Shown piece after piece: positions 2,323 to 3,958 of a stretch of 63,274 nucleotides of DNA (the first letter of the stretch is position 1; the number at the start of each line of letters is the position of its first letter). The translations under genes and the position numbers were made by a program. Under the pieces are notes generated by a model that worked only from the letters and a program-made list of their open reading frames with translations, was not told the origin of the DNA and did not search any database. Origin of the DNA: Clostridia bacterium (lineage in GTDB: Bacteria > Bacillota > Clostridia > TANB77 > CAG-508); NCBI GenBank assembly GCA_045643205.1, contig JAZUKI010000008.1, positions 1 to 63,274 of the forward strand, given 5' to 3'.

Positions 2323-2354
2323 GTATAGACAATTTACATCAACAGATAAATCTA

Positions 2355-2511
2355 GCACTGGGTGTGCTTTCATTAGGCAATTAGCTGGTAGCGGTCGGAG
2401 AAGAGATTTTGCGATTCAGAAACTTAAAGTTTTCCACAAACTAAAGAGAGCAAAATCTCGACTAACCCAGTGAATTGAGTTATGAATCAATGACATTGAT
2501 CCAGGCACTGG
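2355..2511. ncRNA. Candidate RT-associated structured ncRNA (msr/msd-like), strand uncertain
   Basis: CACTGGGT 2356-2363 / ACCCAGTG 2465-2472; GAGATTTTGC 2403-2412 / GCAAAATCTC 2450-2459; small hairpins TGCTT-TCATT-AGGCA and GCT-GGT-AGC; ATCAAT-GAC-ATTGAT; GC-richer than flanks. Confidence 0.55.
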
Positions 2512-2599
2512 TTTCGTATGTTTAAATATAAATGTAAAATACATTAAGTAAAATACTTAGTAAATCACATAATTTAAATCAATGAAAATGCCGTTACAT

Positions 2600-3640
2600 T
2601 CATCGTGCTGATTGTAAAATTGTTTTTACCGAAGCTTCAAAGTTAACATTTGTTTTCTTTTCATATTTTTCAATGATAGATGCTATGAAGCTAGGTTCTA
2701 TGCATCTATAATAAGACATAAGGCCAAGCAACTTAGATAATTCAGAAGCAGACCACATCTTACCATTTTTTAAATCCATGAGAAAGCTCCAAAGTTTTGC
2801 TTTGAGATATTGTTTCTTCTTGCTACCGATTTTTGGTCCGTAACAGCCAATAGAAACACCTAAAACCCATACATTAGTTTTATTCGATAGCAGACATTTG
2901 CATTTGTCTTGGTTTAATGCAAAATTGTATTTTTTTAAACATGTACTTAGTACAACTCTTTTTTCATTAAAATTTTTGTACGCTCTAGGCAGAGTAGAAT
3001 AATAAATATCATCTGCATACCGAGTATACGATGGATCATCCTGCCAAAGTTTTAAATCTAGCGGTAATATTGCTAAATTAGAAAACAAAGGGCTAGTCGG
3101 AGCACCTTGTGGAAGTCTGTAATCATCATTGTAGTAGATCATACATGAAGCAACAATTGTTTCTAGTTTATTAAGATCCATTAAACAAAATGGATATATT
3201 ATAGATAAACTATTCATTATTACATTAATAGTACAACTACCAAAGAAATCTTTGATATCGAATCCCATAATGCAACGTGCACCCAAATGTTTAGTAACAG
3301 CATTAATCGTCGATTTTCCTGGAACATAAGCATACACAAAATTAGGAAATAAAAATTTGAAATTGTGAACAAAATAATGATTCACTTCTCTCATATATTT
3401 TTTTAATTCTTCATCTGGTATGTCTATACGCCGTAATTTTCCACTACGTTTCTTTTTGTAGTAGGTAGTATAGTGACTGTTTACATCGGTGCTTAAAATT
3501 TCTAAAGCACGCATGTACAAATAATCTACTTGTGCGGAAAAGCTTTTTACAAATCTAATATTTTTATTAGTGAATTCTTCTACGAATTCGGTGTAAGTTT
3601 CATCATCTTTTTTATTTTTGTAAGTAATAATGTATGTCAT
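2600..3640 (-). CDS. Retron-like RNA-directed DNA polymerase (reverse transcriptase)
   Basis: KKRSGKLRRIDIP (RT0/1), YAYVPGKSTINAVTKH (region X-like NAxxH), DIKDFFGS, LPQGAPTSP, YTRYADD, VWVLGV (region Y-like VTG); RBS AAAGGAG. Confidence 0.93.
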   Translation of the reverse strand: MTYIITYKNKKDDETYTEFVEEFTNKNIRFVKSFSAQVDYLYMRALEILSTDVNSHYTTYYKKKRSGKLRRIDIPDEELKKYMREVNHYFVHNFKFLFPNFVYAYVPGKSTINAVTKHLGARCIMGFDIKDFFGSCTINVIMNSLSIIYPFCLMDLNKLETIVASCMIYYNDDYRLPQGAPTSPLFSNLAILPLDLKLWQDDPSYTRYADDIYYSTLPRAYKNFNEKRVVLSTCLKKYNFALNQDKCKCLLSNKTNVWVLGVSIGCYGPKIGSKKKQYLKAKLWSFLMDLKNGKMWSASELSKLLGLMSYYRCIEPSFIASIIEKYEKKTNVNFEASVKTILQSAR

Positions 3641-3763
3641 AGAAGACTCCTTTCTATAGTTATGAAGTTTAGTATTGAGTAATTATAGATTTATTATAGA
3701 TGCATATGAACTTGTCATTATACTGACAAGTTGTTTGTCAATGTTCTAAAAGAACGTGTTTAC

Positions 3764-3792
3764 ATAATATCACAAAGATAGACATTTAACAA
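3764..3792 (-). promoter_or_regulatory. Putative sigma-A promoter of the RT gene
   Basis: Minus strand TTGTTA-17 bp-TATTAT with TG extended -10; implies a ~120-nt leader. Confidence 0.55.
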
Positions 3793-3882
3793 TAGAGTTT
3801 TTAATAATTGCAATATTATATAAAGTTATATAGTATTTTTATTATTGTTGTGATAAAATACAAAACTAGAGCAAAAACACAT

Positions 3883-3958
3883 GCTGGTATAGCTCAGTTG
3901 GTAGAGCACGTGTTTCGTAAACATGAGGCCATGAGTTCGATTCTCATTGCCAGCACCA
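3883..3958 (+). tRNA. tRNA-Thr (anticodon CGT)
   Basis: 76 nt cloverleaf: GCTGGTA acceptor, TAGCTCAGTTGGTAGAGC D-arm, TT-CGT-AA loop, GTTCGATTC T-loop, encoded CCA. Confidence 0.96.

Follow-up and report, generated by a model that had tools for sequence, protein, structure and literature searches.

A putative retron RNA overlapping the stop codon of a divergent retron-type reverse transcriptase gene in a Clostridia bacterium

The reverse transcriptase gene and its surroundings

The DNA analyzed (the window) is a stretch of 63,274 nucleotides from a Clostridia bacterium. Between its glf gene and a tRNA-Thr (CGT) gene lies a block encoded on the minus strand, which comprises a retron-type reverse transcriptase (RT) gene encoding protein P0001, a structured element that begins in the last codons of that gene, an intrinsic terminator and an orphan gene, ORF128 (Table 1). 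The initial annotation had singled out 117 nucleotides of this element, referred to here as the inner domain, and had read them on the plus strand as a retron RNA of the Ec86 type, convergent to the RT gene.

Table 1. Features of the RT locus, in order of position in the window
Feature	Position	Strand	Description
glf	499-1593	plus	other border of the island
ORF128 (P0002)	1709-2095	minus	orphan protein, downstream of the terminator
Intrinsic terminator	2273-2322	minus	long hairpin, then UUUUUAUAUU; -26.2 kcal/mol, z -6.26
Outer a2	2329-2354	minus	3′ arm of the predicted terminal helix
Inner domain	2356-2472	minus	closed by CACUGGGU/ACCCAGUG; UUUUGC/GCAAAA stem-loop 2459->2403; tail with two small hairpins
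Conserved hairpin	2483-2503	minus	GGAUCAAU-GUC-AUUGAUUC; stem NNNAAU, loop GUY; best conserved piece
AT-rich hairpin	2504-2593	minus	variable; from the MFE; msr side in the proposed model
Outer a1	2595-2624	minus	5′ arm of the predicted terminal helix; last seven RT codons, stop and five more bases
RT gene (P0001)	2600-3640	minus	retron-type reverse transcriptase, 346 aa (ORF list)
RT gene signals	2602-2600 (stop TGA)	minus	RBS AAGGAG 8 nt 5′ of the ATG
Promoter-like site	3764-3792	minus	TTGTTA-17-TATTAT with TG; candidate start of the RT-ncRNA transcript
tRNA-Thr (CGT)	3883-3958	plus	bounds the RT island on the far side

P0001 was compared with several collections of protein families and structures. 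It matched RVT_1 in Pfam (7.5e-17), and the best 25 of the 56 PADLOC families matched were retron RT models throughout, with RT_II-A (2e-40) and RT_III-A (3.8e-38) at the top. All 12 of the 12 matches in the PDB were retron RTs (Kva2, Ec86, Ec83, Ec78 and Ec67; best 4e-18), and the best NCBIfam model was retron_St85_RT, at 157.9 bits (3.2e-46), which is below that model's cutoff of 235 bits; the Drt2 and Drt4 models reached just 28 and 16.5 bits. PADLOC, the PDB and, below its cutoff, NCBIfam therefore all place P0001 in the retron RT clade, and by these comparisons it is a divergent retron RT. The NAXXH motif and the VTG triplet are named for retron RTs in the parts consulted of PMC7736814. 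When P0001 was aligned by HMMER with the solved Ec83-like retron RT, the NALAH of the reference corresponded to AVTKH, with N-A shifted by one residue, and its VTG corresponded to VLG. The solved Kva2 retron RT has VHG at this place, and so motifs of the VTG type are not invariant among retron RTs.

Relatives of P0001 were sought in protein, genome, metagenome and viral collections. About 35 homologs were found in protein databases (P0003-P0040; 36-58% identity), all of them metagenomic. A search of genome contigs with the single protein found no relative, and a search of the same kind of contigs with an alignment (A1) found at least one clade member, L009. Clade members with DNA are L009 (the same locus as L250), L251 and L252, which all come from one family of the bacterial order to which the window belongs; the RTs of the four clade loci are 346-467 aa in total length, and their N-terminal extensions hold no Pfam domain. 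Among the matches listed from metagenome contigs, identity over the best segment was at most 38% (31% for the top-ranked match), and the viral contig search gave distant relatives only (L169-L180). In the phage and plasmid collections, none of the 15 matches listed per collection exceeded about 29% identity. The RT was found in none of the 43 other genomes of the window's genus and in 3 of 400 genomes of its order besides the window's own; the 400 genomes scored for its class, the window's own included, gave three distant matches. Loci L256-L258 are distant relatives from genomes.

The genes next to the RT differ from locus to locus: ORF128 in the window, PAP2 in L009, LemA and G5-SLT in L251, and small ORFs in L252. 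No conserved effector gene or fused domain, of the kind that marks tripartite retrons, was found in the four clade loci. ORF128 had no match in Pfam, PADLOC or NCBIfam, it is absent from the relatives' loci, and a search of 5.8 billion proteins returned, at near lengths, one match, a 70-aa fragment of 96% identity. An RNA contig of its own (1672-2142, run X1) covers ORF128, which is a possible effector of the retron. The position of the block of RT, ncRNA and ORF128 between glf and tRNA-Thr (CGT), together with the lack of an RT match in the other 43 genomes of the genus, would fit a small island acquired beside a tRNA gene. The use of glf as a marker of the island border within the genus was dropped, as only orthologs of 65-68% identity were available.

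The promoter-like site upstream of the RT gene would be the promoter of a joint RT-ncRNA transcript. In the RT leader, a perfect 9-bp hairpin (AACTTGTCA-TTATAC-TGACAAGTT, 3709-3733) overlaps a further promoter-like site (3710->3682) and may be an operator or a leader structure. Behind position 3818, in the gap between the RT promoter region and tRNA-Thr, DNA runs X2 and X3 have 15 inserted nucleotides, TATAAAATATAAAGT, that the window lacks.

Structure and conservation of the element

All of the repeats and hairpins that the initial annotation had listed for the inner domain are present. The 8-nt inverted repeat is exact (CACTGGGT at 2356-2363, ACCCAGTG at 2465-2472), a G at 2364 stands opposite A2464, and the TGCTT/AGGCA hairpin occupies 2365-2379, with a U-G pair that exists on the plus strand only. 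The GCT-GGT-AGC hairpin lies at 2384-2392, and the long stem is exact over 10 nt (GAGATTTTGC at 2403-2412, GCAAAATCTC at 2450-2459). GTCG (2394-2397) and CGAC (2459-2462), which had been taken to flank the long stem, are there too, but CGAC shares C2459 with the 10-bp stem, and so the two pairings exclude each other. Folded on the plus strand, 2340-2490 has exactly the annotated architecture as its MFE (-37.8 kcal/mol, z -2.73, with 3 of 200 shuffles as good); the minus-strand MFE is weaker (-32.0 kcal/mol, z -1.61, 15 of 200 shuffles) and leaves the 8-bp helix unused. The inner domain as such folds 6.9 kcal/mol better on the plus strand than on the minus strand, and in a strain variant, G2393A, a U-A pair replaces one of the U-G pairs of the plus strand.

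By itself the 8-nt repeat is unremarkable, because 23 inverted pairs are listed in 521 nt of this AT-rich DNA; it is the conservation of the helices in relatives that makes them more than chance. Pairing of the 8-bp helix is kept in L252, with changes on both sides at 5 of the 8 positions. Three loci retain the 10-bp stem; 5 of its 10 positions differ on both sides, all cells are Watson-Crick pairs, and the base of this stem, UUUUGC/GCAAAA, is shared by the four loci, in L252 as UUUCGC/GCGAAA. The earlier view that the inner domain belongs to the adjoining retron is supported, and its helices are real and conserved.

The inner domain is enclosed by a longer helix. Positions 2624-2595 and 2354-2329 form 25 predicted pairs, with three bulges and one mismatch, at an RNAduplex energy of -20.7 kcal/mol, a value reached by 0.15% of 2000 shuffles and by none of 96 windows from the RT gene. 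RNAduplex runs on long flanks over-extended and were set aside. The unconstrained MFE of 2624->2329 is -74.6 kcal/mol on the RT strand against -67.1 kcal/mol for the antisense, and on the RT strand it recovers the outer helix, the AT-rich hairpin, the conserved hairpin with the GUY loop and the inner domain. For the fold of the AT-rich 5′ part, the RT strand is favored by 7.0 kcal/mol. As in retrons, then, structured parts next to the RT gene are closed by terminal inverted repeats. The usual retron layout, with the ncRNA 5′ of the RT, was not found here: in the window, L251 and L252 the element is 3′ and includes the RT stop, and L009 alone has it 5′ of the gene.

Rfam holds no family that matches 2329-2624 at E values up to 10, and in the window just the tRNA passes; a row for mir-1954 at 2624-2700 is a chance match. 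In Logan contigs of the DNA runs the element does not stand out, and standard libraries of this kind would not capture ssDNA. A different fold around the conserved hairpin is possible, because on the RT strand AACCAGUG (2504-2517), part of the base of the AT-rich hairpin, could replace ACCCAGUG as the partner of CACUGGGU (2472->2465).

Conservation was counted across four loci (the window, L009, L251 and L252), with helices counted by script, and the roughly 35 homologs were compared as proteins only; these counts overstate independence, because the loci are kin. The modules, their order and spacing and their orientation to the RT are common to all four, with element lengths of 296, 255, 292 and 275 nt. 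Terminal helices of 10-16 bp are present in L251, L252 and L009, at the position of the outer helix of the window. That of L251 is ATGTTCTTAAAT/ATTTAAGAACAT, with the RT stop inside it; that of L252 has 11+5 bp around ATTCTTAAAT, again with the RT stop inside; and that of L009 is related in sequence (ATGTTCTTG...), in an element that lies 5′ of the RT. The outer helix of the window shares no sequence with these TTCTTAA helices. In L252, L251 and L009 a G follows a1 at +1 or +2 on the RT strand, and the candidate priming Gs in the window are G2592 and G2597, the latter lying in outer a1 in the 1x1 mismatch, two pairs from the inner end of the helix. Counterparts of the AT-rich hairpin occupy the same position in L009, L251 and L252, at other lengths.

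The best conserved piece is the hairpin at 2483-2503, which is a candidate recognition hairpin for the RT. NNNAAU-GUY-AUUNNN is found on the RT strand in 4/4 clade loci, and the core of the hairpin lies 33-42 nt 5′ of TTT[TC]GC in the three relatives and the window. On the RT strand all 36 of 36 cells are paired, with four pairs changed on both sides and 0 of 500 shuffles equal to it; on the opposite strand 33 of 36 cells are paired, and the three pairs that discriminate between the strands are the outermost ones. The same pattern also occurs in four further loci examined (L063, L194, L207 and L237), with two of these loci for either strand. A leave-one-out covariance model built from the three relatives (R1) was run over both strands of the 63 kb; its best match was 2504->2444 on the minus strand (18.2 bits; E 0.086 by rough calibration, which is weak), and the next match scored 14.3 bits. 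A MAFFT alignment of the whole elements was set aside, as it misaligned L009 and the window-L252 pair.

These observations suggest that the 8-bp helix probably closes an inner domain and is not the terminal helix of the retron. The proposal that CACTGGGT/ACCCAGTG are the retron a1/a2 finds no support, as the pair is enclosed by an outer helix that is longer and matches the terminal helices of the relatives. The reading we lean towards is that the 117 nt form the inner, a2-proximal domain of a retron ncRNA of about 296 nt on the RT (minus) strand, 2624->2329.

A version of this reading that keeps the strand but takes the inner helix as the working a1/a2 in the window and L252 was also weighed. 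G2462 of UAG would then prime, the UUUUGC stem-loop would be the msr and the tail the msd. Both the window and L252 retain the helix, with its both-side changes, a G follows it within 2-3 nt in each, and the conserved UUUUGC/GCAAAA stem base is what would be expected of an msr element. The inner helix is, however, confined to these two loci; L251 and L009 lack it and keep the outer one, and the conserved hairpin would fall outside a1/a2. The msd tail would be 39 nt in the window and the cDNA of L252 about 18 nt at most, far below the msd stem-loops of retrons described in the parts consulted of PMC7736814. We regard this version as very unlikely.

The strand of the RNA

The strand was sought in terminators, promoters and assembled RNA. 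On the RT strand the terminator hairpin of the window is followed by UUUUUAUAUU, and on the plus strand by GUAUAG, with no U-run; the consensus scan omitted it because its loop exceeds the limit of the scan. A hairpin with a U-run stands 6-31 nt after a2 on the RT strand in 4/4 loci. Read on the opposite strand, the same hairpin has no U-run after it in the window and L009, a short UUU in L252 and a partial run in L251. The terminator scan reported no terminator in L252 and, in L251, reported the hairpin on the opposite strand only; we think that its stem extension probably consumes the U-run in these two loci. An antisense RNA would need a promoter inside the hairpin, because the terminator hairpin fills that space.

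The promoters point the same way. On the RT strand of L009 a consensus promoter (TTGACA-17-TATAAT with TG, 12/12) precedes the element and a 14-bp terminator follows it, and on the opposite strand of this locus the promoter scan found no promoter-like site. The initial annotation had found no convincing plus-strand promoter in the window, and the scans agree, with only two 9/12 sites (2184-2211 and 2232-2259). In metatranscriptome run X1, one unbroken contig extends from the RT leader to inside outer a2 (2334-3736), so that the element is present in an RNA library. The separate contig over ORF128 lies beyond, and none covers 2143-2333, although uncovered parts are not proof that RNA is absent. 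This evidence consists of assembled contigs, which show neither strand nor ends, and carry-over of DNA is possible; contigs of DNA runs X2 and X3 bridge 2334. RNA run X5 says nothing about the absence of RNA.

An RNA on the RT strand, all versions taken together, is likely. A transcript convergent to the RT, as the initial annotation had it, found no support from the orientation to the RT (the same in 4/4 loci), the RT-strand terminators (4/4) or the 12/12 promoter of L009, and we consider it unlikely, whether it comprises 117 nt or all of 2329->2624 on the plus strand. Were it true, the RNA would be antisense to the 3′ end of the RT gene and the RT would need to locate it in trans, and the RT mRNA and the ncRNA would overlap obligatorily as sense and antisense, a layout that we found described nowhere.

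In the shorter of the two convergent forms, CACUGGGU/ACCCAGUG would be a1/a2, G2364 the branching G, the small hairpins the msr and the UUUUGC stem the msd. The better plus-strand fold, the canonical order on that strand and the unpaired G right after the 8-bp helix speak for it, as do the plus-only U-G pair of TGCUU/AGGCA and the U-A pair that G2393A makes of a plus-strand U-G. In L252, however, the region of the two small hairpins is 18 nt without any hairpin, the best conserved hairpin is left outside, and an outer helix encloses the element; the Ec86-type plus-strand ncRNA and G2364 as its branching G are both unsupported. The only promoter-like sites on the plus strand lie 100-170 nt upstream, no RNA contig covers 2143-2333, and the RT-strand terminator hairpin occupies the promoter space. 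This form is highly improbable.

In the longer form, the small hairpins, the UUUUGC stem and the conserved hairpin would make up the msr and the AT-rich hairpin the msd. The conserved modules would come first and the most variable hairpin last, like in canonical retrons, most clearly in L009; for the 3′ part in RT sense the antisense fold is the better one in three of the four loci, and for the AT-rich part it is the fold in RT sense, which is what a cDNA would show. Against this, the hairpin 6-31 nt before its 5′ end in 4/4 loci leaves no room for a promoter and reads as an RT-strand terminator, the scans found no suitably placed promoter-like site in L009, L251 or L252, and the consensus promoter of L009 is on the RT strand. 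The conserved hairpin would lose 3 of its 36 pairs, the first G after a1 would stand at varying offsets, and the msd of L252 would be a hairpin of only about 27 nt. Of the readings considered here, this one has the least to recommend it.

Folding energies were also compared part by part. Three of the four loci have a 5′ part that folds at least as well on the RT strand and a 3′ part that folds better antisense, the exception being L251, whose 3′ part prefers the RT strand; the whole element of L252 folds better antisense (-72.7 against -65.0 kcal/mol). As a test of strand this preference is uninformative, because a retron is nearly symmetric when strand and msr/msd are swapped together, and both orientations predict the pattern if the msDNA fold is under selection. 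More generally, a correct reading on one strand of an inverted-repeat element cannot fix the strand of the RNA, since the cDNA of a retron resembles in sense an RNA from the opposite strand. The initial annotation had left the strand open, with wobbles that fitted either a cDNA or an RNA; the idea of a cDNA is retained here, in mirror image, with the RNA on the minus strand.

A structured 3′ UTR of the RT mRNA would also account for an RNA on the RT strand. It would act in stability, translational coupling or termination, the element would not be reverse transcribed, and the RT would have another template or none. The stop codon lies inside the outer helix, where translation and folding would compete, no conserved effector was found, and the retron motifs of the RT are divergent. 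In L009, however, the element is a promoter-to-terminator unit of its own, detached from the RT mRNA; an a1/a2 helix with an adjacent G is a hallmark of retrons, and relatives have canonical elements at the same place. This explanation is unlikely, if slightly less so than the inner-helix version above.

A proposed mechanism and its relation to known retrons

In the retron reading favored here, the ncRNA would be the 3′ tail of the RT transcript, on the minus strand, closed by the outer helix, whose a1 arm (2624-2595) includes the RT stop codon. From 5′ to 3′ inside the helix would follow the AT-rich hairpin, the GUY-loop hairpin and the inner domain, with the terminator (2322->2273) beyond. 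If the RT works as in canonical retrons, it would bind on the 5′ (msr) side and prime from the 2′-OH of a G at the inner end of a1, for which G2597 and G2592 are the candidates. It would then copy the domain adjacent to a2, so that the msDNA would have plus-strand sequence from about 2352 onward.

The inner domain would be the msd, the template, because its a2-proximal position matches that of the long hairpin in L171, L174 and L256; as msd it would give a cDNA in plus-strand sense. The small hairpins and G-T wobbles would look right on the plus strand because that would be the sequence of the msDNA. The plus-only wobble pairs, and G2393A, by which a plus-strand pair becomes Watson-Crick, fit a cDNA of this sense. 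Such a retron may make msDNA, and it may have a role in defense.

In the parts consulted of PMC7736814, the canonical order of retron RNAs is a1-G-msr-msd-a2. The window shares with the canonical retrons described there (Retron-Eco1/Ec86 and Retron-Sen2/St85) the RT family, a neighboring structured RNA with terminal inverted repeats and a G at the inner end of a1, short hairpins with a long irregular stem-loop, and a transcription unit that includes the RT. Unlike in those retrons, its RNA gene follows the RT and begins in the last codons of that gene rather than in a 5′ leader, the domain on the msd side is branched, no conserved effector was found in the four loci, and the RT falls below the St85 cutoff and has VLG for VTG. 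According to the same parts of PMC7736814, RT clades 2 and 11 include stand-alone (msr-msd)-RT cassettes that have no dedicated partner gene, as in the window, whose best PADLOC models are RT_II-A and RT_III-A; this likeness is one of models.

The order of promoter, RT and ncRNA is that of the operon engineered for a retron census in the parts consulted of PMC10849725; unlike in the synthetic operon, the order in the window is natural and a1 overlaps the RT stop. DRT3 systems (UG3/UG8) also have a structured ncRNA after the RT gene, but their RT belongs to a different family and, in the sections consulted of PMC8632793, no msr-msd bounded by a1/a2 is described for them. From these comparisons of sequence we propose that the window holds a retron, a known system, in a layout variant with a downstream ncRNA.

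Searches for retron ncRNAs usually cover the 300-600 nt 5′ of the RT (PMC13712802 and PMC10849725, parts consulted), and in the running text of the literature searched no natural retron ncRNA 3′ of its RT is described. The frequency of the layout was surveyed in 224 RT loci as a perfect inverted repeat of at least 9 nt with its 5′ arm at the RT stop, with a control position inside the gene. Among the 21 loci closest to P0001, 8 had a repeat at the stop, 2 had one at the control position and 2 had a strong upstream repeat (at least 11 nt); for the other 203 loci these numbers were 37, 31 and 73. L252 was missed by the GC filter of the survey script.

Just after the RT stop of L171, L174 and L256, on the RT strand, follow a1, a G at +1 or +2, short hairpins, a long hairpin and a2. 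This downstream arrangement appears to characterize a wider lineage of RTs. The related RTs of L171 (ncRNA at 3430-3638), L174 (3369-3582) and L175, from the viral contig search, and of the genome locus L256 have about 30-35% identity; several of the contigs are predicted to be viral, and the ncRNAs of these four loci are canonically ordered and start within about 15 nt of the RT stop. The ncRNA of L009 (1788-2216) is a promoter-to-terminator unit 5′ of its RT. Its a1 still resembles the last 20 or so nucleotides of the L251 RT gene (within 2540-2577 of that locus), with 18 of 20 bases the same, which suggests that an ancestral module was relocated from the 3′ end of the RT gene.

With the stop codon inside a1, a terminating ribosome and the terminal helix would compete, which is a possible link between translation of the RT and priming of the cDNA. 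For engineering, a compact candidate could be a natural unit of about 1.5 kb such as this one, in which the ncRNA follows the RT and no effector is conserved, and which comes from a gut bacterium whose genome is 1 Mb in size. An ncRNA that starts in the last codons of the RT and runs downstream would escape pipelines that look upstream only, and the downstream layout may account for some of the retron clades that have been reported without an ncRNA.
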